Positions 12,501 to 52,092 of a stretch of DNA of 61,305 nt are shown in pieces. Source of the DNA: an uncultured virus (IMG/VR IMGVR_UViG_3300031884_000004) (Duplodnaviria; Heunggongvirae; Uroviricota; Caudoviricetes); the IMG/VR virus record IMGVR_UViG_3300031884_000004; one strand, 5' to 3'. Each line of letters begins with the position of its first letter. Position 1 is the first letter of the stretch. Both the position numbers and the translations under genes were made by a program. The notes beneath the pieces are model-generated. The model saw only the letters and a list, made by a program, of their open reading frames with translations, was not told where the DNA came from and did not search any database.

Positions 12501-15500
12501 CTTCATAAAGATTTAGAACATCAGCGACTATATAATATCCATCAACATTCTGCGCGAAGTTAATGATGGCCATCGGATCTAGCTTATTGAGAGAATGCGG
12601 AGAACTGAACGTTATGGTTGCTGTTCCGTTAGTATTATTTCTAACTTGAATTACTTGACCAATATTGGTCCATCTAAATACGTCCCATTTATTTTTAAAG
12701 TTAGCTAACCAAAAATATTCACCTACGTAGAAATTATTAATAGGAACAACTGCACCGGTACTGTCAACCGCAGAAGGCAATCCAGAGAAGAAATATGATG
12801 ACATCTTAACATCATTTACGTTGATGTATCCGGCGGATGGGTACAGTTGTGAATTAACCGTAGTGTCTAGTGTTGACAATACATTCGGTGATGCTGGTGG
12901 TGTGTTATAATTGAATAAATTGTATAGTGGAACTTCTTGGTCTGAACCAACCGTGTATACTCCATTTGTCAAACTAACAATTGATGGATTACCCATAAGA
13001 TTTGTTTGGTTTATTCTGAAGTCAACGAAGTTTTCATTCAGCACTCCACCATATTGTTTAGTTAAAATAGACCAGTTTTCGTAGAAATCATAAGATATAC
13101 TACCTTGTGGGAAAGTAGCACCTTGGAATGCATCTACTGCATTGCGGGTTCCCTTGTTCTTGATCAAATTTTGATAGACTTGAACTTGAGTAGAATCTGT
13201 AAGGTCTACCAGAGCAAGATAGTCGCGTGGTCTATATCCAATAAGTGAGAACGCAAGCAAGTCGGCATCTTGTTCAAGATTTGCTTGGTAAACATCATAG
13301 TATAGTGTGCTTTCGTATGCACGAGTAGAAGCGTTTGATAACATTCCTTTTTGAATGTCATTGTAATTCACGAGCTTCCAATCTTGCTCGTTGAATGTCG
13401 CGGATGGTTCTATTACTTTAAGTGCAGTCCAATACTTATTCTTATATTGTACGATAACACCTTTAGTATACTTTAGATTACCATTCCATTCTAATACGTT
13501 GTCTTGATTTAAAATGAAGCCCCAGGCGTTTACGGTTCCGTTCCAATCAGCAGTCTTGACCCCGCGAGCGTAGATGCGGTTTTGTCTTAGTCCAGTAGTT
13601 AGATTATAGATAATATCATTAAACAAAGTGACATTATCGAATACGATACCATGCTCGAAATTACTTACGTTAAATTGAGCATAAGACATAGAATCACCCT
13701 GATTCAAGGTGTGCGCATGGAATAATGTATCGTCACGTTCAACGCAAAGATCATTTAGTTGTATCGGATAGAGATTTTGATTTAGTATAAAGTTAGTTTG
13801 CTGAACCGTAAGCGGCTGAACTATCGCGCTTGGTCTATCAATGTTTATTGCAGTAGCAGACGGATTTAGTGTTATCAGACTTCCTACTTCCCATCCGGAC
13901 ATTGACCAATACAAGAATTCTGCTGCCATCTGTGCCCAAGTGACTTCAATTCCTTGTTCAACTTCATTGAACAACATGCCCTGGCTTTCAAGTTCGGCAC
14001 CATAGCTCATTAGGAATTGAACTACTCCCTGAGTGCTGTAGAATTTGGTACCGTATGGAACAAGAACTACTTGATCAGTATAGTTTTTAGCATACTTAAC
14101 TGTAGTACCTAAAACGTCAACACTACCGTATGTACCGTTATTGATAGGTTTTAGTGTTTTAAAGTATGCAAATGTTTGTGAATTACCGTATACAGTCCAA
14201 TAGCCTTGATTTTTCTGAATGACCACGCCACTGAACATAATCTGATCGAAGGGCTGATTGTCATATAACAACACTGAATAACTTTCGTTAGGAATCAATA
14301 GTGTTGCGTTATTGCTATTAGGCGAACCCTTTTCCACATAGAATTGAAGCAATGTTTTGTCACTGTATCCAGCAAGACGATAAACCAGACGAACATCAAG
14401 GTTATTCAAAAGGGTTGTAATGTTAGTAGTTGCGTCAACCCCTTGTTGCTTTTCATAATCTACAATCCAGTTAATGTAGCTGGTTTTTGCAGTACCATTA
14501 CCATAAATTTCAATATTTGCAGGAACTAAATGGCTTCTGTCATTAACCAAATATTGATTAAATTCAGCATTGTATTTGTAATTGTCAAGGTCGACGGCCA
14601 AATTGAAAAATTCAGCTGGTCTAGTCAGTGCAAATAGTCTCATTAAATCAAATGGCCAAGTTGAACTACGTCGATAGCTCAACTCCACAGGTGCATCATC
14701 TCCTACTACCCAATCTTTTTGGAACGTACTTGGATTATAGTTGCCTACAATTGCGATTAGCGGAGACAACAAATCGCCGTTGGAGTCAACCGGAATAATT
14801 TTAGATAGTCCAGGACGTGCTAACTCAGGTACGGTGTAGGGATTACCGTTATTCCAAATATAACCAGCTTCTAAATCACCCCATAGAATACCGTTATCGC
14901 TCGTATAAGGAGTAGGTCCGTAACGATCAGCCCACCAGGTTGGTTCATTAGCAAATCCTAACATCTCCCATGGAGTTTCGTTTGGAGTAGTTGTGTCATA
15001 GAAATATTCATAGACCCCTCTCCAATAACCTTGCTGAATAGCAGCTTGGTCTAGTTTATTACCTGAATTTGTATAGTTATAACTGAACTCGTTGTTCTTT
15101 TGATAGTACTGGGACTTATAATCGAGACGATTTTGACCAATCCAGTTCAAGAACGTAGGTTCGTACATCTGTATAAATTCATTCCATGAATATGTTGATG
15201 TAGAACTTCTGAAGTAACCAGGTACAACTTCGTATCGCTCGATAGGAACAGTTGTGCTTAATTTTAAATTATTGTAAATTCTTAGTTCAAACTCAAGCAG
15301 AGCCTGGTCTCTGAAATCAATCAATACTCCTAATGTTTCGTCATAGTCACCGTATAACTTAGTGAACGATCCGTCATGTCCTTTGATGAAGTAAGTAGGA
15401 ACTGTGTAATCTGAATCCAAAACTACTTCTGGATAAAATGAAGGATATAGTCCCAACTTAGTTGGTGTATTAGGAATATATGAGCCGTATGTTTGGTTGT

Positions 15501-18500
15501 ATTCTTTAATGATGACCTTATCGCCATCACCAAGCGGGCTAATGATAGTGAGCGAAGGGGCATCCGGACTTATTATATAATCTATGCCACTAGTAAGTTG
15601 TCGTTCAACTACTACACCAGCGACTGTTCTCAACACATAAACAAGAACGCCGCTATAGTTAGCAGTTTCAAAATTATAAACATTGCTTAATGGATAAACA
15701 GAAGTATCCAGTTGATTATTGAACGTGTACGTGTTGGTGCGGTACGGAGCCTTTGACGGTAACATGTCCGACCAAAAGAATGCGTTGATTTCGCTCTTTG
15801 CAGCAGTAATCTGGTCTAGTGCGCTATCCAGAATTTGCGACGGAGTGTATCGCTGAACGTAATCTGTGTTTTGTACCGTATATACTAGTAATTGTTTATA
15901 CTTTATATATTCACGGCTGTTAAACATCAATGCGTCAAACAAGTTGTGCTGCGTGTTTCGGAAAAAGGTTCCCGGCAGTACTAATGACGCAGAGTTTTGA
16001 ATTATCTCTGTACCATATGGTACTAAGTTACCGCAATCTCTAAAATTATTTGCGCCGAAAATTTCACCTGTCGTGTTTGGTGAATTAATAAAAATGTCTC
16101 TATACTGTGCACGGATATCACCAACATTGGCTGTAGTTAAATCAGCATTTAATGGATTATTATTTAAATTAATAGGAATGTCGTAGTAACCGATTTGGCT
16201 TACTTGATCACTCAATACTAATACTTGAACTACCGTGCTAGTTGTTGGTAGTGAACTGCTACTGTTAAATGTAATTGTGGTAGTATTGGTACCAACTACC
16301 GTAGCATATGATGTTGGTGCTTGATATACATTGTTGATGTATACCTTAACTCTCGGCCAACCAGTTTCTCCCGTTGCTAAAGCAGGCAATGCTGCAACGT
16401 CACACTGGAAACTTAATGTTGGATTTGTAGGATCAAAGTCAAAACTGAATAATTGATATTGCGTGCTATCAGCAATTGCGGTTTGCCAACCAAGCTGTCT
16501 TACATATGATGTACCTGATGTATAATTATATACGTAGCCAGTATTTACCTTTTGATTAATAGGATTATATCCAGACACATAATTAAATGTATCCAAATTC
16601 AGTGATACGTCGAAACTAATATCCCCTACGTTATCTATACCAGAATATGCGATTGGAAAGCCTAATATAGGGTCATTGACTCCGCTACCAACACTGTATG
16701 CGAAAAGTTTACACCCCTTGAACGAAGTACTTTGATAGACCGAAGAATCCCCAAAAGAAATACCGTTGGCATCAAAAACGTCAAACAGCGGTGGTTGGTT
16801 AACCGTAACCTTTTGTTGTGCCTGTATCCACTTTATACCATCATAATAGTAACTAGTGCCTTGGTGATAATAACCACGCTTAATTGCTAATTGTTCATCA
16901 GGGACAATATTTCCGTCTTCTGCTACCGTGAGTGTAATTACAGGTCTAGTATTAGGATCAATTACCGAGAAGTTTACGACATAGATTTTGTTTCTTACAG
17001 TAGAGCTAGAGTCAGCAGCAAATACGATTCTTGCTTCCGGAAACAAAGCATAGTTATCTAAAGTAGTGTCTGAACCCACAATAGACAAGTTTGAAGCAGA
17101 GGATATGTTTTTTGCGCCGGGCCATGAAACTGTTACAGTTAGCGTAGTAGTACCAGTAATGTCGGTAATTTGTGTATTATTAGGAAGAATGCTTGAAGAA
17201 TCTGCAACATACATTCCAATTTGGAATGTACCCGAAACGTTAGCAGCGTCTACACTAAAGGTAGTTGATGTTGCGGCGGTTACTCCTACAACCGACGCCG
17301 ATGCTGTAGTAAGTACTTCTGTATCTGGGTAATAATTGTAAGATCCTGCTACTGTTGACAATGCATCAGTGTTATGGGTATCGATAAAATCGATTCCTGC
17401 GGCGCCTACAGAACCCGAATTGTATAATTTTAGATTAGGATAAAACTCGATTATAGGGCGGACTGCTTTGTTTGCTTGTGTCGCGTAAGTAGTTGCGATA
17501 TTAGGGTCGTTATTGTATTTTGCAGTTGCGTTGATGACATCGATGTGGAACCAACGATTGCTTCTGGACCAAGCATTTTTATTGATTGCGTTTCTAGCAA
17601 TAGTAATATAGTCTTTATCTGTTGGAATAAAAAGGTCCGAATCGTAATTGCTAATGTCATATGGTGTAGAATCATATGGAATGTAATTACCATGTGTAAA
17701 ATCTTCAGTACAGACTAGAGAGCTTACTGGAACTAACTCAATTGCAGTTCCTACACCCTGTACATAGTATTGTCCCTGTAAATAACTTGTAGGAATAATG
17801 TCACCTTGAAAGTTAACTTTCAATCCATTAGTAAATACTACTCCACTAGATGACGTATAATTAGGGTTACCCAAGATTTCAGTCACAACATTAATAGTAT
17901 TTGTAGTATTGCTGTCAATGATTTTAATCACGCCGACAGAATCAGCAGATGTACCGTCTTGATAATATAGAACATCTAACGGAGCAGTGATAACAGGAAT
18001 TGGATTAATTACTCCGGTAGGTGAACGATAAAATGGTATATTGTTCCATTGAGTACCATATAATGGAGTAATTGTTTGATTTACAGGAATAGTACCATCT
18101 GGAACTAAACGAATAGTTGGGTTCTTTGGATCACCGATGTATTCAATCAAGTAATAGTATTCAAACACCGTTGATGCGACACTTTCTTCATATAGACCCT
18201 GATTGATATTGGCAACCATAGTACCTGATCCAGGAACCAAAGTTAACGGAGACGAAGCATCTAGAGTCAACGCGATAGTAAATGTACCTGAAGTAGGAAT
18301 ACTATGAACATAATAGACTTCCCCTGCAGTAACTCCACCGAATGTTGGGTTGTTAAAGGTTACAGTTTGACCGACTACTAATTGAGAGGTACTATCTGTA
18401 GTAAACGCAGAAGCATCACAGCTAGTTACATTTATAACGATTGGTGCGACGAGAACATCACTATTGATGTCCAGCGGTGTCTCGCTCAAGAAGGTCTCTG

Positions 18501-19440
18501 TGTTTCCCTTCTCTGCCGGAATACCATCATAATAGAACATGATGCGTAACCCTTCAAGCGCAGTCACGCCATCAATGTCATTAAGTCCTTGATATGTTAC
18601 GCCATCCGTGTCAGTAAATGTCTTTAAAACTGCTCCATTTACTTGGTCAAACAATTTAGTGCTGACTAGATCGACAGTGTTGTTACCTGGAAAAATATAT
18701 TGATCTTGTGCATTTTTTTGCGGAACAGTAAACGTAACAACACCTTGACTTGCGCCATTGTTGTCTACTCCGTATACTTGTCTAGTAGTAAGATTCGATT
18801 GGAATGGCGAATATCCTGAGGTACCCGGATCCGTCTGAATCCAAAACTGAGACGATTGATTTACAGCAAAAGTATAGGTTCCTCCGCGGATCAATCCAAG
18901 TGTAGGATTGATGCTACCGATAGGTTGTCCGACTAGAGCAATTTCATATCCATTAGGTAGTGATGTGACTGCATAATTTTCAGTAGAGTACACGGTTGCT
19001 GCTGAGATAGTAACAGCCGGCGGCCCGACTGGCAACCAGTAATATTCATTAAAGTTAATGAGCTTGTCGAGGTTAGTGAAGGAGTCCCATGAATAAAACT
19101 GACTTTTGAATAGACGACTGTTGTTATCCGTAATACTATCTTGCATTGCAATAGAGTCGATGATGCCTGGATACGAGATAAAGTCGTTTGCTACAGATTC
19201 GTTTGGCTTAGTAAAAACTACACCCGGATCTAACTGATAGTTCACCCGAGTTTTTGTTGGTTCAACTACATAATTGTCAGTTGCATTTACACCATATCCA
19301 AACTTGCTACCTACATAGCCTTGAATCTTCATCGTATTCGGTGGATTTACGATCTGATCTAGGGTCGCTGACAAAAATTCCGCGTTAGTTGAGGTTTGAA
19401 AAATCTCAGGAAGAAAAGTTATTGTCCGAATTCGGGCCAT
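547..19440 (-). CDS. giant virion structural protein, probable baseplate wedge/adsorption protein (6297 aa)
   Basis: Directly downstream of gp6. Contains FG-GAP-like repeats, Asp-box/BNR (SxDGxxW) repeats and about 15 copies of a GxxVxF...GG...YYV...FTIS beta-rich module. Late promoter motif at 19498-19505. Confidence 0.75.
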   Translation of the reverse strand: MARIRTITFLPEIFQTSTNAEFLSATLDQIVNPPNTMKIQGYVGSKFGYGVNATDNYVVEPTKTRVNYQLDPGVVFTKPNESVANDFISYPGIIDSIAMQDSITDNNSRLFKSQFYSWDSFTNLDKLINFNEYYWLPVGPPAVTISAATVYSTENYAVTSLPNGYEIALVGQPIGSINPTLGLIRGGTYTFAVNQSSQFWIQTDPGTSGYSPFQSNLTTRQVYGVDNNGASQGVVTFTVPQKNAQDQYIFPGNNTVDLVSTKLFDQVNGAVLKTFTDTDGVTYQGLNDIDGVTALEGLRIMFYYDGIPAEKGNTETFLSETPLDINSDVLVAPIVINVTSCDASAFTTDSTSQLVVGQTVTFNNPTFGGVTAGEVYYVHSIPTSGTFTIALTLDASSPLTLVPGSGTMVANINQGLYEESVASTVFEYYYLIEYIGDPKNPTIRLVPDGTIPVNQTITPLYGTQWNNIPFYRSPTGVINPIPVITAPLDVLYYQDGTSADSVGVIKIIDSNTTNTINVVTEILGNPNYTSSSGVVFTNGLKVNFQGDIIPTSYLQGQYYVQGVGTAIELVPVSSLVCTEDFTHGNYIPYDSTPYDISNYDSDLFIPTDKDYITIARNAINKNAWSRSNRWFHIDVINATAKYNNDPNIATTYATQANKAVRPIIEFYPNLKLYNSGSVGAAGIDFIDTHNTDALSTVAGSYNYYPDTEVLTTASASVVGVTAATSTTFSVDAANVSGTFQIGMYVADSSSILPNNTQITDITGTTTLTVTVSWPGAKNISSASNLSIVGSDTTLDNYALFPEARIVFAADSSSTVRNKIYVVNFSVIDPNTRPVITLTVAEDGNIVPDEQLAIKRGYYHQGTSYYYDGIKWIQAQQKVTVNQPPLFDVFDANGISFGDSSVYQSTSFKGCKLFAYSVGSGVNDPILGFPIAYSGIDNVGDISFDVSLNLDTFNYVSGYNPINQKVNTGYVYNYTSGTSYVRQLGWQTAIADSTQYQLFSFDFDPTNPTLSFQCDVAALPALATGETGWPRVKVYINNVYQAPTSYATVVGTNTTTITFNSSSSLPTTSTVVQVLVLSDQVSQIGYYDIPINLNNNPLNADLTTANVGDIRAQYRDIFINSPNTTGEIFGANNFRDCGNLVPYGTEIIQNSASLVLPGTFFRNTQHNLFDALMFNSREYIKYKQLLVYTVQNTDYVQRYTPSQILDSALDQITAAKSEINAFFWSDMLPSKAPYRTNTYTFNNQLDTSVYPLSNVYNFETANYSGVLVYVLRTVAGVVVERQLTSGIDYIISPDAPSLTIISPLGDGDKVIIKEYNQTYGSYIPNTPTKLGLYPSFYPEVVLDSDYTVPTYFIKGHDGSFTKLYGDYDETLGVLIDFRDQALLEFELRIYNNLKLSTTVPIERYEVVPGYFRSSTSTYSWNEFIQMYEPTFLNWIGQNRLDYKSQYYQKNNEFSYNYTNSGNKLDQAAIQQGYWRGVYEYFYDTTTPNETPWEMLGFANEPTWWADRYGPTPYTSDNGILWGDLEAGYIWNNGNPYTVPELARPGLSKIIPVDSNGDLLSPLIAIVGNYNPSTFQKDWVVGDDAPVELSYRRSSTWPFDLMRLFALTRPAEFFNLAVDLDNYKYNAEFNQYLVNDRSHLVPANIEIYGNGTAKTSYINWIVDYEKQQGVDATTNITTLLNNLDVRLVYRLAGYSDKTLLQFYVEKGSPNSNNATLLIPNESYSVLLYDNQPFDQIMFSGVVIQKNQGYWTVYGNSQTFAYFKTLKPINNGTYGSVDVLGTTVKYAKNYTDQVVLVPYGTKFYSTQGVVQFLMSYGAELESQGMLFNEVEQGIEVTWAQMAAEFLYWSMSGWEVGSLITLNPSATAINIDRPSAIVQPLTVQQTNFILNQNLYPIQLNDLCVERDDTLFHAHTLNQGDSMSYAQFNVSNFEHGIVFDNVTLFNDIIYNLTTGLRQNRIYARGVKTADWNGTVNAWGFILNQDNVLEWNGNLKYTKGVIVQYKNKYWTALKVIEPSATFNEQDWKLVNYNDIQKGMLSNASTRAYESTLYYDVYQANLEQDADLLAFSLIGYRPRDYLALVDLTDSTQVQVYQNLIKNKGTRNAVDAFQGATFPQGSISYDFYENWSILTKQYGGVLNENFVDFRINQTNLMGNPSIVSLTNGVYTVGSDQEVPLYNLFNYNTPPASPNVLSTLDTTVNSQLYPSAGYINVNDVKMSSYFFSGLPSAVDSTGAVVPINNFYVGEYFWLANFKNKWDVFRWTNIGQVIQVRNNTNGTATITFSSPHSLNKLDPMAIINFAQNVDGYYIVADVLNLYEVVINLSALNANQNSIQGRGLAFGFVSQRVASPAGIIPLASAENEFIKNTVWVDENTDGNWAVYRKSLNYAYQNQFEQADGGTFGSAVAYTSDMGYLIGDSGTGILYRYIYDSLAQAYLLKENKTGGTSFGSTIKYAQNLYAVSQPSGVSPAVTLYTLNHTVVTDRMLTYQTIAAPGGVTDWGSALAISGDTNWLYISDAQNNNVYVYRKQNIPLIAGYFVTGETYVITSLGSTDFTAIGAVDNKVGITFVATGAGAGTGTATQITYKQSTIISGSSLFSLGAGDGFGTALATSYDGSTLAVTAPFIDYSPTITNWGTTFVLQRTMQNFEAKQNSLPEQTTSFSLSWTPAAGATITASATSSVTNRITCSGSMTGFQINQPVVFAGSNFGSSNVSPNQVYYIHGISGSEISIKTSRSSTTPVNLTTAAGLSFSVYVQVDPLYVYLNGKLVTDDNYAVIGTSFIYYSSLIAGDILTVSDNQYFPAQQINSDYIDRTDIEFGYAVDMYKTGSTLLIGSPYEVDANDVEGAVYSYVNGGAEYGVVIGTNECNVTTNRTLLINGFAVNLSAGNAQSVANTINSSKIINVQAAATSDNKLIIQVINQNIAQINQKLTVYAYDSGTTLSELGINLYTKTQIIQSPHEQGASRFGSAIKINEFDSVIISAPVGTRYEGTFFDFTDDENLDNDTVFDNNATQFVDSYVNAGAVYMFDYIGLYNESLANPGAYVYAQSVNSKNIPYGQQPLYGTAIDFNENVVVVGSPNFYPVAVGGQVVVYNNATGVSDWSVYRNSAPIVDISKIQNTQIFSASTNQTLINLDYMDPLQGKLLGAARENLDFVSGTDPARYNSDLSTIIGSVWGAEHVGQLWFNTNNVRWMNYHQNDNVYNSKYWGAVFPGSDVAVYTWVASFVPPNSYPGPGAVYNPNLYVVSTVLNASNNAVPVYYFWVSNTNIIFEQTGKTLSDSVVASYISNPKGSGIAYMAPLLPNTFALYNSVDYFNANDSVFHIGFANGTTDDVAHQEYALIRENYQDDFLPGLPHGGTSAHTLAIQGGYTISETDVPYSLYAKLLDSLAGCDGAGAVVPNPWLPLAVQSGIRSRPNQSFFYDRYLAINNYLTYANTVLAQYPIAEIRPDATFLFQSGTYFNTADYWSYVNWWATGYSDSTKSSLQVPNYADLAALNVAVNTIVTVEQNGAGKFEVYRYDGYGVWTRIGLQNGTIAFDTSLWDYSSAKIGYGDNFFDTTPYDQYPSEETRYIVRALTEQIYISDLLIYRNTSLILLFDYIQSETTQSQNFLPWLNKTSLADVSHTIRELIPYEVYQTDNTAFLSGYINEVKPYHVVIKDFVFKYTGTDVYQGNITDFDLPATYNSSYQQYISPQLVYSNPNSQYEYLPTDSIWSTAPYTQWFQNHGVSITGQPNYNITVTTSYVSTSSTYIVVDNAHGFPINGTINIGNEIIGYSFVDRALNVLSGLVRGVNGTPIENHITGAQIYIDLPAALVLFGGRGYVEPPKVTAYIDTSIYPAPKTPAVLEAVMNLDSVLQINVIDPGEGYAVLPEIVIDPAEVIAFDNTAVNGTFHTIRLYAPNLQTGDAVLYKSGITASVGALANNQWYYINVLETVPTAIIALYTTYSDAINDKARVKIYPIGIGSDMTLSSGARASAITTALPIRENNTTIRFDRTTYGSQVQDWEAGAYYGSFFAGTLDNSSTTSSSSIGLESTEPPIDSILASAQGAVFEITDISNDQQLTWSSFIRYVSGTTASNHSITLIPQDNGGGQPNASGTTIGFYIGMPVKFQSTLSFGGLVSNQIYYVNTILSETEFTVSTTVGGPIFGVTDSVVGVYTMECFVGEVTNTAVMSINYPGILQVTATTATTNALTVPTSLVGTGGTLGFYTNLPVFFTEDVFGGIVANKTYYVTSVIDNQTFTMSATTNPVSTTAYSVDGSTDRVAVNDGTNFNINDIVVFTDMVIAGTSTTNFGGLVAGTFYYVSGVYLSSKEITLSATKNGAVLNLTTVVAASDTSAIMTNQKDTVALTTAVGSATMNVSLPISPGQINGQLFTIYETSGQYPNNIVSAGEVSSLISRSINATISAVNRIAVSASLGGTDFFYKNMPIRVTTNIGNLVAGTTYYIREYTGDGTNTVIEVTVTNTSSSGNVLSCGSTASLYIGMPIVFSGQSLGGIFVTETYYIQDIPSSTTFTLSLTVSGPAITLTNDNGVMTGAGDPFFTVSTTVNGSEFALSSDHTTVSTATQYVTGYTTFDLSYKLGGYSAVPTNAGSGFAVNNIITIPGTAVGGTSPANDITLEVNSVDALGGIINVIASGNVPSTSTKYYLKVISSNQLEVYSNPLLTVPVSGINFPFNGYTTTTVQSVSSNIITVNSTTGFNVNDAVVFTGNVSAGIVAGQTYYIVNNVNFTSNTLQISSTPGGTAITLSNASSLSYTMAKSGSYAFLPEPFYFNQSIVKFNNKVYICVISNNDKEFVIGKWEELDSGDRRLNAMDRVMGYYKPTVNMPGVDLTQLFDGVTYPNSIYLGNAFQPNQQFALDVVVQDQPFYPSQVNITAVEYHNNVYHAVANLPTYSALLTSADGITWAITQLANTDINVTNIVYNNGTYLISAANNATPILTSVDGLVWTVANTTEHSSQAAAYGNGCWISVGDNIVRSTDAITWNTVHTFDSIFEVELYGVSFVQTASFTGFVAVGNGLRYDYSTGVTQLVPTDIIITSADGITWTQVAPLTNKSLNSVVSNGTTIVALGENNVQYTSTDAINWFGNEALVTTFSSTNYIISTAPNAFTVNAAVQFSNSFSSINAGTTYYVKSIVSPTLVTISDTLGGSTKTLSADTVPINTLMYEYDANPSTVRDSVYVGGTFVSVGDNGLIKTSTDGYVWTLRSSGTTQNLNGITYDTDGITTFTVVGDNNTVLTSTDTIIWTDNSVFTVPPTVYDVKGADFPYGYGPEELVPGVVTDNLALTVVTRPGSNWDVTEYSHTGFNVVSLELAPTFGTQTVYTFAGAVQVPAQLTVQIIDPVTGLGTGITEGIDYTINWLNKTVILSTPLQFSPKKILRIDVYEVGNGDQLVQSSTDVNPIRVDDVTGFNEVYVDCNYSASVYQGSGVIRPGTSAIESQVLSTDSTTNRLTCTDISKFILNGPVTFLGVLFGGVVSETTYYVKSISTATDSIIISASIDPVTGLAGPAFDLVTASGDAMYVSIQSGNGQVWTTPIMYHNGNKLVLGATNIVIRTQSINNSLTTNSTFGFVPGTRITFSNTMFAGISPQTTYYVSSVINNNEFTISATNGGPVLPLPDTTGGAIFVTNDYAFGTQPNGIAAKIIFASDAYTTETDYIVYSLFGETTPQYGYAVPEIQYFTGTGSQTAFTLSNYVGENNPNNAVVEVNGVRKTVTTDYSINPNTNVITFTSAPVSNSSISVLTYNDTQQQYLTSQYGLTGTTVAPILSINTTLSPILATTTVTATSSTGNLITATSTAGFVVGQQIQFFGIAPLGGIKVDGTMYWVGSIISNTFTIKDQYGVAVPLSNASGTLLAEVGGISTTRVTTTIPHGFAENSLVRIDGTVGSIQLNNNIYYARVITDTVFDLYQSDVSGYTGYNPTLGATNYPVIGVSTYISGGYTWLTGSFNITTTTATATTSSNNTITVASTANLIVNTPVYFSENYTLNGTDLSFGGLVSGTEYYVSEIVNGTTFVVSDTYDGPSKTLTTSGPATINVTQWSQQYTDRIWVTVNGLRVPSSKLRINPANEVSILAEIQSTDKVIITSMIAHWTPEEMTYMNFVDKNGVASVYRSNTLTRTWLTESIQDLTTVIYVNDVNSVIQDVVFTATVPTVSVDGYYYIGLPADKRILTAVSVVNISTTPNQTISSNDYEVVLVDTAPTLKITPGSYISTGNTLTINVLEGDIIYVNGEAIRFNAVDIASNSLLGIQRGVNGTAKQSYIPAYTEVFGLLTSNKLDDVYYNQTWNSYTFNTIDGDPLQISTTTPALFLQTDIT

Positions 19441-35847: not shown

Positions 35848-35916
35848 TAAATAGATGTGAGTCGCGGGAGTACGAATCCCCACTCACTCTAATGCTAGAA
35901 GGAGCAATCAGCAATG
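35846..35916 (+). promoter_or_regulatory. late promoter plus conserved structured HEG leader, copy A
   Basis: GATAAATA-gat-GTGAGT-cgc-GGGA-gtacgaa-TCCC-c-ACTCAC-tctaatgcta-gaaggagcaatcagca-ATG. Confidence 0.8.
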
Positions 35917-36621
35917 AATATTTATCTATATAAAAAGACCCACAACATAACCGGTCTTAAATACCTAGGTAAAACAACAGCCAAAGACCCGCACAAATAT
36001 AAAGGCTCAGGTGACTATTGGAAAGATCATATTAAAACTCACGGATATGATGTTACGACTGAGATACTAGCAGAATGCAAAACAACTAAAGAATTAAAAG
36101 AGCGGGGATTGTATTATAGTAATTTATGGAACGTGGTTGAAGAAAAAGATGCCAACGGAAAGAAAACATGGGCTAATTTAAGACCAGAAACCAGTGACGG
36201 AGGAGGTAGATTACCGGGATTTAAGTTAACAGATTCTCACAAAGAAAACATAAGCATTGCCAAAACCGATGTTACTAACCCAAAGTTGAGTGAGCAGAGG
36301 AAAGGTTTCGGAAATCACATGTTTGGACAGAAGCGAGATGATATATCCGGAGATAACAATCCGATGAAAGACCCTGCAATAGCGGACCGTGTTAGAAGAT
36401 CCCATCTCGGTAAAAAACACACTGACGAGTCTAAACGAAAACGATCAGAAAAGCTTTCAGGCCACAACAATCCTATGTTCGGCAAAATCGGAGAACATAG
36501 TCCAAGGTATGGCAAAACATCTCCGCCCATGACGTGTGAACATTGCAGTAAAACCTGCGCTAGACACAACTTTGTGAAATATCACGGAGATAAGTGTAAA
36601 AATAAAAACAACCGTATATAG
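35914..36621 (+). CDS. GIY-YIG homing endonuclease with NUMOD3-like repeats and C-terminal zinc finger
   Basis: IYLYKKTHNITGLKYLGKT...YKGSG...WANL; HTDESKRKRSEKLSGHNNPMFGK; CEHC...HGDKC. Confidence 0.85.
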   Translation: MNIYLYKKTHNITGLKYLGKTTAKDPHKYKGSGDYWKDHIKTHGYDVTTEILAECKTTKELKERGLYYSNLWNVVEEKDANGKKTWANLRPETSDGGGRLPGFKLTDSHKENISIAKTDVTNPKLSEQRKGFGNHMFGQKRDDISGDNNPMKDPAIADRVRRSHLGKKHTDESKRKRSEKLSGHNNPMFGKIGEHSPRYGKTSPPMTCEHCSKTCARHNFVKYHGDKCKNKNNRI

Positions 36622-42121: not shown

Positions 42122-45100
42122 ATGTCTGGATACAAGAAGAAATTTCTAAACAAGAGTGGTGTTTCGAGTCCTATCTCTGGTGCGAGCAGTAATGCCGGAG
42201 CATGGAATGGGTCGCCTGGACAAAACGGTATGCCAACTGGTGGTTGGAACAATACTGAATTTGGATACAAAAACTATCAAAGTAGACTACCGGAAGTCTA
42301 CACTGGTCACCCCAACAGAATCGAACGATACAATCAATACGAAATGATGGACGTTGATGCTGAAATCAACGCTTGTTTGGACATCATAGCAGAGTTCTCT
42401 ACACAGCGAAATGAACATAACAAGACACCGTTTGCGTTTGAATTCAAAGGAGAACCTACGCCACGTGAAGTAGAATTGCTAGGTAAGCAGCTACAACAGT
42501 GGTGCAAGCTAAATGAATTCGACGTGAGAATGTTTAAGATTTTCAGAAACGTTGTCAAGTATGGTGACCAAGTATTTGTTCGTGACCCAGAAAACTTTAA
42601 GCTATACTGGGTTGATATGGTTAAGGTCATTAAGGTTATCGTCAACGAATCTGAGGGCAAGAAGCCGGAACAGTATGTCATCAAAGACATCAATATCAAT
42701 CTACAAAACTTATCAGTAGCACAGAAAACCAATACTGACTTTGCTGCGAACCCAGCAACTGGTTTAGGTGGTAGTGGCGGCGGAACTAACACCCCGTACA
42801 CTGTTCCGGCAATGCCATATAATACGACTGGAAGTCGTTTTACATTAGGTCAGAGTGAATCAGCAGTAGACAGTAAGCATATTGTACACTTGTCCTTAAC
42901 TGAAGGATTAGATAGATTTTGGCCTTTTGGTCAATCTATACTGGAAAACATCTTTAAGGTCTATAAGCAAAAAGAACTACTAGAAGATGCGGTTCTTATC
43001 TATCGTGTGCAGCGTGCACCTGAACGTAGAATGTTTAAGATCGATGTTGGTAACATGCCAAGTCACTTAGCAATGGCATTTGTTGAGCGAGTAAAGAACG
43101 AAATTCACCAGCGTAGAATTCCCTCACCGTACGGTGGACAGTCGATTGTGGACGCCTCTTATAACCCTTTATGTTTGGATTTAGAAACTAAAATTCCACT
43201 TTTAGATGGAAGAACCTTGTCTTTACAAGAAATAATCACTGAATTTGAAGCTGGAAAAGAAAATTGGGCGTATAGCTGCGATCCAGTAACCGGTAGAGTA
43301 GTACCTGGAGTAATTAATTGGGCTGGCATTACTAGAAAAAACACAGAAGTAATTAAACTTACTTTTGATAACGGCAAAACATTAGTTTGTACACCAGACC
43401 ATAAAATACCTGTGTTTGATAAAGGCTTTGTAGAAGCACAACATTTAACTGAAAATGATAGTCTAATTGCGTTCAATACTCAAAATAAAAATATTTCAGG
43501 CGGAAAAACCAATGATTACCAGCAGGTATGGGACCATGAGAGTAAAAAATGGATTTGGACTCATCGGATGGTCGGGGATTTCTTTAGAAATTTAGGAAAG
43601 CACCAAGAATTTAATTATCTAACTGAATACGCAATGGCACCTAGAACAGTTATTCATCATAAAGATAACAATAGATTTAATAACGAACCCAAAAACCTAG
43701 TATTCATGAACAAAACAGATCATGTTTTATATCATGCTGCACAGAAAAAAGAATTTTGGGAAACGATGTCAGATGAATATAGAAAGCAGATAACGTCTAA
43801 AACTTCGGCCACTCTAAAAGAAAATTGGGAAAATATGACCGAAGAAGAACGTCTAATCGGTCTTTGGAACATTAGAGCAGCGCAACAAAAAGCTGTATGG
43901 GCTAGAAAGAACGATCCTATAACTGCGGCTAAATATAAATCTAGTATGCAACAAGTGCGCAAAGAGTACTTTGATCGTAATCCAGTTGGTTTGGAAAAAG
44001 TTCGTGCAAATTGTGAAAAGAGAGTTAAAATTAAAAATCAACCACTGATCTTGACATTTGATATGGTACAACGAGTAGCAGAACAGGTTAAGCAAGGTAA
44101 TAAAAATAAAAATAAGGTACTGGAGTGGTGTGATAATGATAGCACCTTATTGAGTTTGGTTAAGAATGCTAATTCATCACCATTGGATTATAAAAATGCA
44201 CAATGTAAAATAGACTTTAATAAGTTTGGGTACAGTAAGTTAGACAGACTTCTTTCTAAATTTGGATATAAAAATTGGAAACATTTTGTAAAAGAAATTG
44301 ACAATTTTAACCATAGAATTGTAAAGATTGAAAAGGTAAGTAACAGAGACACTGGAACTATAACTATTGATGGGCGTCATCAATGGCATGATTATCATAC
44401 GTTTGCTATCGACGCTGGTATATTTGTAAAGAACTCAATGAACGAAGACTATTTCTTCCCTGTAACAGCAGAAGGACGTGGATCATCTGTTGAAGTTCTG
44501 CCGGGCGGACAAAATCTAGGTGAAATCGATGACTTGAAGTACTTCAATAATCGTCTTGCCCGTGGACTTCGTGTTCCGTCTTCATACTTACCAACTGGTC
44601 CCGACGACAATACTACACCCATGAACGATGGTCGTGTCGGCACAGCGATGATTCAAGAATTTAGATTCAATCAATACTGTGAAAGACTTCAGAATTATAT
44701 CTGCTTGAAGCTGGATGAAGAGTTTAAGTTATTCTTGCGTTGGAGAGGCTTCAATATTGATACTAGTCTTTTCCAACTAACTTTTAATCCTCCGCAAAAC
44801 TTTGCAGCCTACCGTCAGAGTGAGTTAGATAATGCACGAGTATCAGTGTTCTCTGCTATGGATGCTATTCCATACATGTCAAAGCGCTTCAACCTTGAAA
44901 GATTCTTAGGTCTTTCAGAAGAAGAAATCAAGAAGAACGAAAAGCTCTGGGAAGAAGAAAACAGAGAAGAAGTCACTAGCGAACCACAGGGTGCTGATCT
45001 TAGAAACATAGGTGTATCCAGCGGAGACTTTGATGCTGATATGAATACTGCGGATCAGATTGAGAATTCCGAACAGGAAGGTGAAGCACCGGAAACTGCT

Positions 45101-45181
45101 GGGCCAGTTTCAGGCGGCGATGTAGCAGCAGAACCATCAGCAATGGGCGGACCTGGAGCAACTCCGGGCGGCGGCTTCTAA
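42122..45181 (+). CDS. gp20: portal protein, T4 gp20-like, intein-containing (about 598 aa after splicing)
   Basis: LEDAVLIYRVQRAPERRMFKIDVGNMP and SMNEDYFFP...GRGSSVEVLPGGQNLGEIDDLKYF. Confidence 0.93.
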   Translation: MSGYKKKFLNKSGVSSPISGASSNAGAWNGSPGQNGMPTGGWNNTEFGYKNYQSRLPEVYTGHPNRIERYNQYEMMDVDAEINACLDIIAEFSTQRNEHNKTPFAFEFKGEPTPREVELLGKQLQQWCKLNEFDVRMFKIFRNVVKYGDQVFVRDPENFKLYWVDMVKVIKVIVNESEGKKPEQYVIKDININLQNLSVAQKTNTDFAANPATGLGGSGGGTNTPYTVPAMPYNTTGSRFTLGQSESAVDSKHIVHLSLTEGLDRFWPFGQSILENIFKVYKQKELLEDAVLIYRVQRAPERRMFKIDVGNMPSHLAMAFVERVKNEIHQRRIPSPYGGQSIVDASYNPLCLDLETKIPLLDGRTLSLQEIITEFEAGKENWAYSCDPVTGRVVPGVINWAGITRKNTEVIKLTFDNGKTLVCTPDHKIPVFDKGFVEAQHLTENDSLIAFNTQNKNISGGKTNDYQQVWDHESKKWIWTHRMVGDFFRNLGKHQEFNYLTEYAMAPRTVIHHKDNNRFNNEPKNLVFMNKTDHVLYHAAQKKEFWETMSDEYRKQITSKTSATLKENWENMTEEERLIGLWNIRAAQQKAVWARKNDPITAAKYKSSMQQVRKEYFDRNPVGLEKVRANCEKRVKIKNQPLILTFDMVQRVAEQVKQGNKNKNKVLEWCDNDSTLLSLVKNANSSPLDYKNAQCKIDFNKFGYSKLDRLLSKFGYKNWKHFVKEIDNFNHRIVKIEKVSNRDTGTITIDGRHQWHDYHTFAIDAGIFVKNSMNEDYFFPVTAEGRGSSVEVLPGGQNLGEIDDLKYFNNRLARGLRVPSSYLPTGPDDNTTPMNDGRVGTAMIQEFRFNQYCERLQNYICLKLDEEFKLFLRWRGFNIDTSLFQLTFNPPQNFAAYRQSELDNARVSVFSAMDAIPYMSKRFNLERFLGLSEEEIKKNEKLWEEENREEVTSEPQGADLRNIGVSSGDFDADMNTADQIENSEQEGEAPETAGPVSGGDVAAEPSAMGGPGATPGGGF
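43172..44434 (+). mobile_element. intein (421 aa) with HNH endonuclease in the portal
   Basis: YNPL|CLDLETKIPLLDG...CTPDH (block B)...VIHHKDNNRFNNEPKNL (HNH)...TFAIDAGIFVKN|SMNEDY. Excision restores YNPLSMNEDYFFP. Confidence 0.92.
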
Positions 45182-46018
45182 GATAACATCCACCCGCGTA
45201 CAGATTTTCTTTTTCCAGACATTAATAAACTTACATTTCCTTGATGTAGGTTGTATGTTTTTATAAAATCAAACACTGTCATTCTAACTTCTTCTAGTGT
45301 ATTTTTATTTTTAAATGAGTATACATTGGGGTTATAATTAGGGTGCCCCTTTCCAAATTGAGTTGATTTGTAATTAGGGTTGTTTCTGTAATGATTAATT
45401 CCAGAATTTTTACTGATTACATATTCTCGAAAGGAGTCATTCCAGTTTGATTTACTTTCTGCTATCTTTTCTATTACTTCTTTAGATTTTGAAGGATTGT
45501 TTTCCCTAACATTCTATCAGATAAGTCTTTCCTCCAATCTGGGTTATTTTTAGTTCTAGTGTCGATTGCTTTTTTTCTTATATGTTTTTTGTCTTCAGTA
45601 GACATGTGCGAAAATCGTGATCGAGACAGATCACCTTGTTTTTTTCTTTTTTCGGGAGTCCATGCGTGATCAATTCTATTTTTAAATTCAATAGTTTTAG
45701 AATGATGGCTGTCACCAAAAACAGTTGCACCTCCGTCGCCCTCTTCAAACTTTAGATTAGCCCACGTTTTCTTCCCATTCTTATCCCGCTCGTCTACTAT
45801 ATTCCACAGTTTAGAGTAGTATAACCCCATTCTGCTACCTCTTCTTTAGAGTGACACTCTCGTAATATTTCAGTAGTAACATCATACCCATGTGTTTTTA
45901 TATGCGACCTCTACATTTTTCCGGATCCTGGATACTTATATGGATTAGATTGTGCGGTTTTACCTAAGTATTTTAATCCAGTTATGTTATGGGTTTTCTT
46001 GTATAGATAAATAGTCAT
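45178..46018 (-). pseudogene. degenerate GIY-YIG homing endonuclease
   Basis: MTIYLYKKTHNITGLKYLGKT...GSGKM*RSHIKTHGYDV, with TAG at 45911-45913 where the paralog has Trp. Frameshifts near 45826 and 45505; the tail reads ...QGNVSLLMSGKRKSVRGWMLS*. Confidence 0.85.
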
Positions 46019-46088
46019 GCTGATGTTTCCTAAGATAGCATTAGAGTAGTTGGGGTTTGCTGACCCGCGAACTACGTTTATATTTATC
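46016..46088 (-). promoter_or_regulatory. late promoter plus conserved structured HEG leader, copy B
   Basis: GATAAATA-taaac-GTAGTT-cgc-GGGT-cagcaa-ACCC-c-AACTAC-tctaatgcta-tcttaggaaacatcagc-ATG. Confidence 0.8.
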
Positions 46089-46102
46089 ATAATGATAAAT
46101 AT
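46080..46102. promoter_or_regulatory. back-to-back divergent late promoters
   Basis: ATATTTATCAT-a-ATGATAAATAT perfect inverted repeat. Confidence 0.7.
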
Positions 46103-46409: not shown

Positions 46410-47045
46410 TCAATCTCGTATTACTATCCAACCTTTAACCGATTTATGTTTACCACTTATTAACCAACTTATGTTCCCTTGATACTTTGATAAATCATGT
46501 TTGATCATGAAATCTTTTGCTGTTAAAATTTCTATTTCACCAGTTTTTACGTGTTTCCATTTATATACAGGTTGATTAACTTTATCTACAAAAGCAAGTG
46601 ACCTGTTTTGTTTCAAGAAATGATGAGTTCCGTTTTCTACTCGTTTTTTTCCTCTGAGACTTGCGGCTTCTTTGTCTAAGAAATGATGAGTTCCGTTTTT
46701 TACCCTGTCCGACGCATGTGAACTACCATCTGCCCTTTTGATCAAGTTGTGGGTATTATTCTGTATTCTGGTTAAGTTCTGTAGCCTATTCAAATCGGAT
46801 AGTTTTTCAGGTGAAACTTTTTGTTTTTTACCTAGTAAAAAACAAGCACCGTAGTCACCTTGAGAATAATGAATATCATAATGTTCTTGAATAGTTACAC
46901 ACTTCAAGTTTATCGGGTCATTATTTGAATGATCACCGTCTATGTGATGGATTTCATATGATCGATCATTCTCTTCTTTTGGAATAGGTCCGTTGTGTTG
47001 TTCGTAGATTCTACGGTATTTGGTAGTGCCGCAATAAATACACAT
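46410..47045 (-). CDS. HNH homing endonuclease
   Basis: YRRIYEQHNGPIP...YEIHHIDGDHSNNDPINLKCVTIQEHYDIH; RVxNGTHHFL repeats; C-terminal HTH-like domain. Confidence 0.88.
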   Translation of the reverse strand: MCIYCGTTKYRRIYEQHNGPIPKEENDRSYEIHHIDGDHSNNDPINLKCVTIQEHYDIHYSQGDYGACFLLGKKQKVSPEKLSDLNRLQNLTRIQNNTHNLIKRADGSSHASDRVKNGTHHFLDKEAASLRGKKRVENGTHHFLKQNRSLAFVDKVNQPVYKWKHVKTGEIEILTAKDFMIKHDLSKYQGNISWLISGKHKSVKGWIVIRD

Positions 47046-47113
47046 GCTGATTGCTCCTTATAGCATTAGAGTAGTTGGGTGTTAGCGCACCGTGAACTAC
47101 ATCTTTATTTATC
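47043..47113 (-). promoter_or_regulatory. late promoter plus conserved structured HEG leader, copy C
   Basis: GATAAATA-aagat-GTAGTT-cac-GGTG-cgctaa-CACC-c-AACTAC-tctaatgcta-taaggagcaatcagc-ATG. Confidence 0.8.
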
Positions 47114-47235
47114 TTTCTCCATATTTATTTTGTATAGCACCGCCAAAAACGCAAAAAAGACTACTTAATACGGTGTTTTTTGTCTCACTGCATAAGTATA
47201 ATATACAAAGCCATTTCTATTCAGGAGACAATTTA

Positions 47236-48066
47236 ATGGATATCAGAAAATACGAACAAATGATCAACCTCGTAATCAATGAAGATCACGAGCAAGCATC
47301 AGAACTCTTTCACGAAATCGTAGTAGAAAAGTCACGCGAAATCTTTGAGTCAATTATGGCCGAAGAAGATGACGATGATATGGACGAAGGTATGGGCGGA
47401 CAAGTAGGTGATCTACTTGACGAAATCAACGCCGAAGAAGAAGGTGTTACCGAAGAAGACGAAAGCGACATCGAATTTGATGATGAAGCTGAAGAAGACG
47501 GTGAAGACTTCACTCACGACCTAGAAGCAGAACACGACGAAAGCGAAGAACACGAAGAAATTGAAGATGCAGTAATTCGCATCGAAGACAAGCTCGACCA
47601 ATTGATGGCAGAGTTTGAAGAAATCATGGGTTCAGGCGAAGAAGAAGACTTCGGCGACGAAGAAGATTTCGGCGACGAAGACGAAGAAGATTTCGGCGAC
47701 GAAGAAGATTTCGGCGACGAAGACGAAGAAGATGCAGAAGACATGATGGAAGCAGTTCAGCTTCAGAAGGTTTCTGTAACTCACGGTGACAATGGTCAGA
47801 ACACTAAGAGCCCAACTACTTTCAATTCAGGACAAGCTGGAATGGACAGCAAGCCAGTAAAGTTTGCTGACGGTAATGAAAAGGGTCGTACTGCTCCTCC
47901 TACTAAGGATCTTAAGGGCGCAGGACAGTTCAAGAACGTACCAGGAAAGAAGTCACAAGATTTGAGCGCAGCACCTAAGCCAAAGCACGGTGATGACGGT
48001 CAAAACACCAAGAGCCCAGTAGCAGAATCACGCAAGCGTGCTCCTGCTCGTAGACCAACACGATAA
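47236..48066 (+). CDS. highly acidic prohead core-like protein
   Basis: AGGAG SD before ATG 47236; ASELFHEIVVEKSREIFES; EEDFGD tandem repeats at about 47641-47730; lies between portal and protease. Confidence 0.65.
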   Translation: MDIRKYEQMINLVINEDHEQASELFHEIVVEKSREIFESIMAEEDDDDMDEGMGGQVGDLLDEINAEEEGVTEEDESDIEFDDEAEEDGEDFTHDLEAEHDESEEHEEIEDAVIRIEDKLDQLMAEFEEIMGSGEEEDFGDEEDFGDEDEEDFGDEEDFGDEDEEDAEDMMEAVQLQKVSVTHGDNGQNTKSPTTFNSGQAGMDSKPVKFADGNEKGRTAPPTKDLKGAGQFKNVPGKKSQDLSAAPKPKHGDDGQNTKSPVAESRKRAPARRPTR

Positions 48067-48081
48067 GTAATCTGAGAGCAA

Positions 48082-48222
48082 ATGGCTTTGTACATCAGAA
48101 GTGAGAATCGGGCAAACGTAAAATCAGTCCCGAATCTCTATGGTTGGACTCACGTGCCACTTTACGGTAGGTATGTGAGTCCACAACCCGCTTCTGAATG
48201 CAAACCAAAAGAGGTGTTATAA
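48082..48222 (+). other. structured 140-nt insert and 46-codon uORF duplicating the protease start
   Basis: ATGGCTTTGTACATCAGA (MALYIR) versus ATGGCTCTATATTTAAGA (MALYLR). The uORF ends in a TAATG overlap and the insert folds as a three-way junction. Confidence 0.6.
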
Positions 48223-48860
48223 TGGCTCTATATTTAAGAGAAAATTTGACCTTTGATCGCGCTAGTATGGTGGTCGAATCAGTCAAGGATGAGGGCACCG
48301 ATCTTAAGACGCTCTACATGAAAGGTATTTTCATCATGGGCGGAATTAAGAACGCAAATGAGCGTATTTACCCCGTCAACGAAATTGAAAATGCGGTAGA
48401 TACTCTCAACAAGCAAATACACGAGGGTTACTCGGTGCTTGGTGAAGTCGATCACCCAGACGATCTAAAAATAAACCTAGACCGTGTCTCTCATATGATC
48501 ACTCATATGTATATGGACGGACCAAACGGTTATGGTAAACTAAAGATTCTTCCTACTCCAATGGGTCAACTCGTAAGAACAATGTTGGAATCAGGAGTGA
48601 AGCTCGGTGTGTCCAGTAGAGGTAGCGGCAACGTTAACGATATGGATGGTCGAGTCAGTGACTTTGAAATAATCACTGTAGATATCGTTGCTCAACCGAG
48701 TGCTCCGAATGCATATCCTAAGGCAATTTATGAAGGTCTTCAGAACATGAAGTACGGACATAAAGTATTAGAGATTGCTAAAGACGCTCAAGGCAACAAA
48801 CAAGTCCAAAGATACTTGGCTGAGGAAGTAAAACGCCTCATCAATGATCTAAAGTTATAA
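48222..48860 (+). CDS. gp21: prohead protease, T4 gp21-like
   Basis: KGIFI...NANERIYP...LGEVDHP...INLDRVSH...GVKLGVSSRGSG...DIVAQPSAPNAY; SD GAGGTG before ATG 48222. Confidence 0.93.
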   Translation: MALYLRENLTFDRASMVVESVKDEGTDLKTLYMKGIFIMGGIKNANERIYPVNEIENAVDTLNKQIHEGYSVLGEVDHPDDLKINLDRVSHMITHMYMDGPNGYGKLKILPTPMGQLVRTMLESGVKLGVSSRGSGNVNDMDGRVSDFEIITVDIVAQPSAPNAYPKAIYEGLQNMKYGHKVLEIAKDAQGNKQVQRYLAEEVKRLINDLKL

Positions 48861-51312: not shown

Positions 51313-52092
51313 ATGTTCAAAGAAAATAAATATACTAAACACTACATGCTCCTTATTGAGAAAGCAAAAAATCGTACATTGCCAAAAGGGCAATACAAAG
51401 AACGACATCATATTATTCCTAGTTCAATGGGAGGCAATGATGATAAAGATAATAAGGTGTGGCTAACAGGAAGAGAACACGCACTTTGTCATTGGGCATT
51501 GTTAAAGATGACTGAAGGAGAAGACCGCGTCAAGATGTCATATGCGTTTAATGGGATGAACGCTGAAAATGAGTTTCAGCAAAGATACCACTCACGTATC
51601 ATAACTAGAGCATATGAAAAACATCGGATAGCACACGCAAAAACTCATTCAGAAAGAATGAAAGGTAAACCAGCTTGGAACAAAGGTCAAAAACTTGAAG
51701 GTGAAGAGTTAGAAAAACATAGAGAAAGAACACGCAACAGAAAGATAGATCCTGTTAAACAGGCTGAAGGACAGTTAAAAAGAATCGCTAAAGTAACTGG
51801 ACAAAAACGCTCTGAAGAAACCAAATTGAAACAAAGTTTAGCACTCAAGGGAAAACCTAAGGGACCAATGAGCGAAGAACAAAAGATAAAACGTTCAATA
51901 AAGCAAAAAGGTGTATCTAAACCAGAAGGATTCGGTGATAAAGTTGCTGTTAGGATGAAAGAAGAGTTCTCAAAAAATAATCCTAATAACAGAGAAGACT
52001 TAAAGAAAATTTGCCCACATTGTCATAAAACTTTTGGTCCCAGTAACTATTCTCGTTGGCACGGTGATAACTGTAAACAGAAAGACGTGTAA
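51313..52092 (+). CDS. HNH homing endonuclease with NUMOD3-like repeats and C-terminal zinc finger
   Basis: ERHHIIPSSMGGNDDKDNKVWLTGREHALCH; PAWNKG; RSEETKLKQS; CPHC...HGDNC. Confidence 0.87.
   Translation: MFKENKYTKHYMLLIEKAKNRTLPKGQYKERHHIIPSSMGGNDDKDNKVWLTGREHALCHWALLKMTEGEDRVKMSYAFNGMNAENEFQQRYHSRIITRAYEKHRIAHAKTHSERMKGKPAWNKGQKLEGEELEKHRERTRNRKIDPVKQAEGQLKRIAKVTGQKRSEETKLKQSLALKGKPKGPMSEEQKIKRSIKQKGVSKPEGFGDKVAVRMKEEFSKNNPNNREDLKKICPHCHKTFGPSNYSRWHGDNCKQKDV

Follow-up and report, generated by a model that had tools for sequence, protein, structure and literature searches.

A structured remnant of a GIY-YIG homing endonuclease gene as a candidate translated leader of a phage prohead protease gene

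The window analysed here, a stretch of 61,305 nucleotides from an uncultured virus of the Caudoviricetes, is part of a genome record of 181 kb (~52% complete), and its ORFs and Pfam matches show that it contains the head module of a large T4-like phage. In this module an intein-bearing portal gene is followed by an acidic core-like gene, a gp21-like protease gene and two further ORFs, which from the gene order we read as scaffold and major capsid genes. The core-like gene has a weak PHROG match to 'virion structural protein' (E 9e-4), contains tandem E-E-D-F-G-D repeats at 47640-47730 (+) and stops 15 nt upstream of the first of two protease starts. The closest proteases with a name belong to Sinorhizobium phage Phosso (60%) and the PA5oct/Paride group (54%), and near-identical DNA (at least 90% of words) was found in 17 of the 23 runs listed (14 studies, mostly lake or fresh water). 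The portal gene, which is T4-like and located at 42122-45181 (+), is split by an intein with an HNH motif. Endonuclease-like genes lie near the head module at 45474-46090 (-), 46410-47045 (-) and 51313-52092 (+); they comprise two HNH ORFs and a pair of 59 and 118 aa that by its motif resembles a broken GIY-YIG gene and has no informative Pfam or PHROG match. A 6297-codon ORF occupies 547-19440 (-). The features around the protease start are collected in Table 1.

Table 1. Features at the start of the prohead protease gene (window positions)
Feature	Position	Strand	Basis or remark
Acidic prohead-core-like gene	47236..48066	+	ORF 47092-48066; probable start MDIRK at 47236
Original gp21 initiation region and first codons, taken over by the HEG; in the window they begin the uORF	48064..48096	+	Context as in empty alleles
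46-codon uORF	48082..48222	+	~41 N-terminal HEG codons fused in frame to the HEG's last 5-6 codons
P0 closing stem, 5' strand (uORF codons 1-7)	48083..48103	+	Predicted fold
Hairpin H1, 16-nt loop with CGTAAA 48117-48122	48103..48138	+	Inherited from HEG leader codons
Hairpin H2, from GIY-YIG beta-hairpin codons (WTH...WYVGS), loop 48159-48169	48142..48188	+	Pairing in 20 alleles; synonymous-shuffle test
P0 3' strand and deletion junction	48189..48207	+	Comparison with L216, L217 and L224
HEG C-terminal codons with new SD GAGGTG and TAATG overlap	48208..48224	+	L092 and L224 tails
gp21-like prohead protease	48222..48860	+	Pfam Peptidase_S77 E 7e-26; start recoded GCT CTA, not GCT TTG

As the initial annotation had pointed out, the start of the protease is present twice, with ATG codons at 48082 (MALYIR) and 48222 (MALYLR) that lie 140 nt apart. 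The sequence between them is an open uORF whose TAA (48220-48222) overlaps the second ATG as TAATG, and the SD (GAGGTG, 48211-48216) lies beyond the fold. The three-way junction described in that annotation is also the fold that we predict (-60.9 kcal/mol, z -5.95, none of 200 shuffles as stable), with the hexamers CGTAAA and TTTACG (48161-48166) at their claimed sites in the loops of the two hairpins, with five G-U pairs among 48, and with the sense strand better by 6 kcal/mol. Among the 2588 140-nt segments of the 181-kb record this fold ranks fifth, and the four segments above it are richer in GC (56-70% vs 46%). The comparison with empty sites that the annotation had called for confirms a true insertion: in 75 of the 80 closest gp21 loci just 11-34 nt separate the upstream stop from the gp21 match, the other five being the window allele, two other inserts and two loci without a visible upstream ORF. 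Since the empty alleles share the context of the first start of the window, it is this ATG that is original, and the one at 48222 has replaced it. At 48068 the window has T where all 10 fetched loci with the window allele have G, which removes an AGGA upstream of the uORF start; the single DNA run mapped agrees with the window.

Sequence comparison identifies the insert, almost certainly, as what an in-frame internal deletion has left of a GIY-YIG homing endonuclease gene (HEG) of the free-standing kind. Its blastn match (E 2e-6) is the locus L008, where a 266-codon ORF begins with MALYL at the gp21 start and overlaps a new gp21 start with its end; the uORF matches this HEG in BLASTP (E 4e-6) and is matched by the family profile (E 3e-17). 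Full-length HEGs at the gp21 start have 190-270 codons and begin MALY. The uORF is colinear for 41 codons with the closest of them (L092/L216, L217 and L224), and it ends in KPKEVL with TAATG, where L092 has QPKEMV and L224 has LKEVA, each likewise followed by TAATG; the colinear codons together with the matching tail mark it as an in-frame internal deletion. At the junction there is a short likeness, CAA(T)CC/CAACC, between the CNP codons of the parent and its C-terminal FQP codons. GIY-YIG activity needs the YIG motif, the catalytic Arg, Glu and Asn and a DNA-binding tail, as the residue roles in I-TevI show; the uORF reads RYVSPQ for the parental WYxGSR and lacks ~160 parental codons, so that we reject it as an active endonuclease and treat it as a remnant rather than a member of the family. 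Relative to L224 it has 20 nonsynonymous and three synonymous codon differences, a ratio that indicates loss of protein constraint.

The four parents tested all match phrog_314, 'homing endonuclease' (E 6e-17 to 2e-24). L008 matches Pfam SegE_GIY-YIG at E 2e-4 and 21.9 bits, below the cut-off of 25, and, as the one allele scanned for it, has a NUMOD3 C-terminal module (38 bits); a PDB profile search with the parent HEGs gave no significant match. The last 35 HEG codons, used as a test for intron context, have no excess structure (mean z 0.2), and by this test the intact parents appear to be free-standing and not within an intron. Scans with the family profile gave 131 loci in 75 distinct contexts, eight of the loci lacking the motif, and 27 HEG alleles stand at the gp21 start when the window's own is excluded and the partly deleted L339 is counted. 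The HEG is optional at a fixed site: a census of distinct loci, in which 56 loci were skipped and HEG loci were over-sampled on purpose, found 141 empty sites, 25 long inserts and four short ones. None of 167 candidate relatives in bacterial genome contigs was confirmed, and isolated phage records gave just one distant match. A repeated origin of the gp21-start HEGs is not borne out by a tree of 71 nuclease domains, in which the gp21-start alleles need five changes and well-supported branches force one; the structured alleles could have a single origin.

The family also occurs away from the gp21 start. Thirteen alleles, mostly without strong 5' structure, lie one gene downstream, between gp21 and gp22 (L236, L247, L256, L257, L259, L287, L292, L333 and L337 among them), and at L273:1429-2250 a member of the family is joined to a longer copy (~26 codons) of a gp21 N-terminus of another type. 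A 79-codon allele at another site (L346:1501-1740) seems to be internally deleted, and L291:1444-1590 and L289:1492-1630 are structured (z -6.1 and -3.1) at an unrelated site. The genome record itself holds two distant relatives, at 35914-36621 (+) of the window and at G000:C1:138470-138748.

The proposal that an insertion had rebuilt the gene start it disrupted is borne out by the HEGs, which re-supply gp21 with a recoded start. Native gp21 starts read GCT TTG in 110 of 113 cases, a reading found in none of the 11 re-supplied starts that still encode MALY. This recoding, which bears indirectly on cleavage or homing of the HEG at the empty allele, could reflect immunity to cleavage, avoidance of direct repeats or release from the native start hairpin. 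Many native gp21 starts (for example L002:2989-3030) have the potential for a hairpin whose loop holds the AUG, a possible reason why the native start is so strongly conserved at the DNA level. Native gp21 has additional hairpins at codons 10-19 and ~28-37.

Any ORF behind the gp21 start, whether native gp21, HEG or remnant, is strongly structured on the sense strand over codons 6-40. When these codons are shuffled synonymously, z is -3.95 for the gp21-start HEGs (26/27 below -2), -7.3 for the window allele and -3.21 for native gp21 (54/65), as against -0.52 for the same family at other sites (9/43) and -0.03 for the gp21 interior (0/65); the gp22 start gives -1.88 (29/62) and the re-supplied gp21, displaced from the captured start, -2.1 (10/22). 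The first 140 nt behave likewise, with a mean z of -4.9 at the gp21 start (22 of 27 below -3, in a set that includes the window allele and L339) and of -1.4 elsewhere (6 of 47 below -3, one of the six being a misfiled gp21-start allele). H2 relies on synonymous choice (p<=0.05) in 27 of 28 gp21-start alleles vs 14 of 47 elsewhere.

From these comparisons both window hairpins are inherited from the HEG. With the window-derived structure imposed on 20 alleles, which biases the counts towards the window, 73.5% of cells are paired and 16 of 36 pairs have changes on both sides (0/500 shuffles; slid controls 31-48%), pairing reaching 90.5% of cells in H2, 72.5% in H1 and 57-65% in P0. H2 is a long hairpin (~14-20 bp) in all alleles, and H1 has both-side changes in eight of its 10 pairs and an expected pairing of 7.9-16.8 bp across all 27 HEG alleles. 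A de novo RNAalifold consensus of the 20 alleles recovered H2 and neither H1 nor P0; H1 seems to be missed owing to a one-base shift of its register from one sub-group to another. Oppositions of G-T and A-C in the stems number 29:4 at the gp21 start and 16:13 elsewhere, counted over related alleles, and the excess of G-T argues that the structure is one of sense-strand RNA. Under a covariance model, 13 gp21-start loci (that of the window among them) reached 78-116 bits, HEGs at other sites 24-70 and the remnant L348 27; the model missed the remnant L066 and matched none of nine empty loci. P0 differs from the hairpins: in the window register it averages 2.6 bp and at most 10.3 in the 27 HEG alleles, none of which reaches 12, vs 16.8 expected pairs in the window remnant and 13.1 in a further remnant, L427. 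If the downstream region searched is widened, several HEG alleles pair the start region with later codons, by up to 15.9 bp. The H2 loop has also changed in the window, where it is the parental loop inverted, probably by template switching: up to 9 of its 11 positions agree with parental loops read as the reverse complement, and one of 11 with the forward sequence. In the sections of PMC8794818 drawn on here, a single template-switching event produces several compensatory changes and inverts loops, and a loop that is inverted beside a perfected arm is its signature.

The window remnant is one of several deleted HEGs at this site. L066 and L348 form a second remnant lineage, with open frames of 42 and 66 codons that overlap the gp21 start and with hairpins that covary between the two. 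A third, L427, came from a pattern scan (161 nt, eight contigs, two alleles) and is closest to an L230-type HEG; its 53-codon frame is open and has the TAATG overlap, and P0, H1 and H2 form as in the window (z -8.7), with equal stability on both strands (-58.7 sense, -58.8 antisense). L339 is another in-frame deletion. Shorter remnants (~46-106 nt from the start motif to downstream gp21 codons) gave no match in viral contigs for one gp21 type. All three deletions with a traceable parent (window, L427 and L339) keep the parent's C-terminal frame, and under a parent-based null of random substitution at the observed load the probability of finding no stop is 0.22 and 0.18; the kept open frames are our best evidence that the uORF would still be translated. 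The window and L427 deletions both start directly past the P0 3' strand. We suggest, tentatively and as the less probable view of this history, that three or more deletions were independently domesticated after the death of the HEG as translated cis-regulatory leaders setting protease dose, two of them converging on a closed three-way junction. The HEG fold, lying in catalytic-motif codons, would then substitute for the native 5' structure of gp21, and the window lineage may have gained a loop-loop kiss by inversion of its loop.

Taken as a whole, the locus is probably best explained by a dead HEG that has persisted as a leader, both structured and translated, and throttles gp21; the throttling role itself we favour only slightly, and it is the part of the earlier suggestion of a protease-dose leader that is still plausible once the riboswitch or ribozyme device is set aside. 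As the sequence comparison shows, a free-standing GIY-YIG HEG inserted a few codons into gp21 and took over its start, giving gp21 a new SD and a recoded start that overlaps the HEG's own stop, and in this phage an in-frame deletion has left the first 41 codons and the SD-bearing tail. Ribosomes would load at the captured start, probably by coupling to the core-gene stop, would be limited by the structure over the first 40 codons, and would read the uORF and re-initiate at TAATG. The remnant would in this way keep the protease low relative to the core and scaffold proteins, as the 5' structure of gp21 may do in empty alleles, and in intact HEGs the same fold may also limit nuclease output. In T4 the prohead protease is needed in small amounts; the literature searched held no account of translational control of T4 gene 21. 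The window leader folds at -56 vs -37 +/- 5 for random mutants, under a null that ignores template switching and counts the loop inversion as ~10 substitutions. Simple occlusion of the SD is not supported as the mode of action: opening energies over the ribosome footprint are alike for HEG starts, native gp21 and gp22 (8.5, 8.2 and 8.0 kcal/mol; 6.6 for re-supplied starts), and both hairpins, H1 and H2, come after the AUG. With GAGGTG, a strong SD, placed beyond the fold, initiation at gp21 could also be independent of the uORF. Of three RNA runs with small shares none covers the insert, and they speak neither for nor against its transcription or splicing.

The throttle has to be weighed against a mostly neutral scar, a less probable reading that nonetheless carries appreciable weight, in which the SD, and perhaps an open coupling frame, matter while hairpins left over from the HEG were perfected by template switching once protein constraint had ended. 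The inverted H2 loop with its perfected 3' arm and the perfect-complement P0 runs of the window and L427 remnants are expected from template switching without selection (the single-event outcome described in the sections of PMC8794818 used here) and so weigh against the throttle, and the stems of L427 and L066 are near-perfect and strand-neutral. The window fold, however, retains its G-U pairs and its sense-strand advantage, its deletion and that of L427 share a starting point just past P0, and structure in this position is needed by native gp21 as well. It is improbable, but would suit the length of H2 in all alleles and an effect tied to position and not seen as SD occlusion, that the fold is instead a signal for mRNA processing, stability or protein binding (such as a site for RNase III, for RNase E or for a phage translational repressor) that separates the core-gene mRNA from that of gp21-gp23 and is no brake on initiation. 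RNase E does process the segB, segG and mobE transcripts in the part of PMC2988022 consulted. Against such a signal, loop sequences vary across alleles, no sigma-70 promoter or intrinsic terminator was found in 47900-48400 (the phage's own late promoter may differ), and the open frames are left unexplained.

The kissing-loop device of the initial annotation fares worse. Purine riboswitches, the hammerhead ribozyme and phi29 pRNA are kissing-loop three-way junctions, and the insert is like them a predicted three-way junction with two hairpin loops; that it should be a riboswitch, ribozyme or ligand-responsive leader new in the window lineage is very unlikely. The six Watson-Crick pairs between CGTAAA and TTTACG exist, although they go only modestly beyond chance (P 0.025, loop letters shuffled, post hoc), and both differences from the inverted parental loop fall inside TTTACG, so a lineage-specific kiss may have formed. 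Unlike those RNAs, the insert has no Rfam match (none at the gathering score in the window, and none of four weak matches at E<=10 overlaps it), and neither the loop sequences nor their complementarity are conserved: the latter is confined to the window allele, with at most 4 bp in the 27 HEG alleles and 3, 4 and 2 bp in L427, L066 and L348, and the window and the independent L427 remnant do not share loop sequences. The 10 fetched loci with the window allele are invariant in the loops, leaving no covariation visible. Least credible of all, to the point of near-certain error, is a miniature non-autonomous insertion element, a self-excising intron or a ribosome-hop element, for which the short, structured insert and the duplicated gene start had spoken. 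Searches with blastn, a protein profile and a covariance model in the ~52%-complete genome record found no second copy beyond the two distant GIY-YIG relatives, and a full-length GIY-YIG HEG at the same site is the parent and accounts for both ends. A MITE-like element is rejected because the insert is single-copy in the genome record and the second start is synonymously recoded, as in all 11 cases, and so forms no exact target duplication; the one DNA run that spans the insert crosses it without a joint. Translational bypass of the T4 gene 60 type involves a stop after the take-off codon and a matched landing codon; there is no such stop here, the frame being open for 46 codons and gp21 having its own SD and ATG, and we reject it. 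Of the annotation's interpretation, then, insertion and start rebuilding hold, and the miniature element, riboswitch, ribozyme and kissing-loop device do not.

Seg endonucleases encoded by free-standing genes, overlaps of stop and start codons and hairpins associated with HEGs are already known (PMC2988022), as are lasting scars of HEG insertion of the gene 60 type (PMC5009743). Like the Seg HEGs of T4-like phages (PMC2988022), the family is free-standing, patchy among relatives and, in the allele scanned, equipped with a NUMOD3 tail, and it overlaps neighbouring genes in a manner suggestive of translational coupling. Unlike them as described there, the parent HEG captures the start of its host gene and rebuilds a recoded one, and the window keeps 46 codons without the catalytic motif. 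Upstream hairpins that sequester the RBS hide the SD of I-TevI, I-TevII, I-TevIII, segB and Aeh1 mobE, and a late promoter bypasses them (PMC2988022); these too are HEG-associated RNA structures thought to limit HEG translation, whereas the gp21-start hairpins lie inside the coding sequence, one of them in GIY-YIG codons, do not evidently occlude the SD and, in the window, outlive the nuclease. As with T4 gene 60/mobA, Aeh1 nrdA/mobE and the gene 43 IC-UTS (PMC5009743, PMC2988022, in the sections consulted), HEG insertion into an essential gene has left a lasting change at the level of translation; in contrast to these cases, the window shows neither a hop nor a split enzyme: a second start gives the full protease, and what is left over is an open uORF. 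The literature searched, in which subscription papers are thinly covered, yielded no report of a HEG at a prohead-protease start, and none of site-specific control of a HEG by structure in the nuclease's own coding sequence.

Should the stems be no more than products of template switching, they would still warn that, in dead phage genes, changes that look compensatory can give the impression of a riboswitch. Should the leader have a function, the gp21 start would be a repeated natural experiment in which a selfish gene decays into regulatory RNA. With empty alleles, intact HEGs and three kinds of remnant at one site, the step from parasite to control element is testable by simple reporters.
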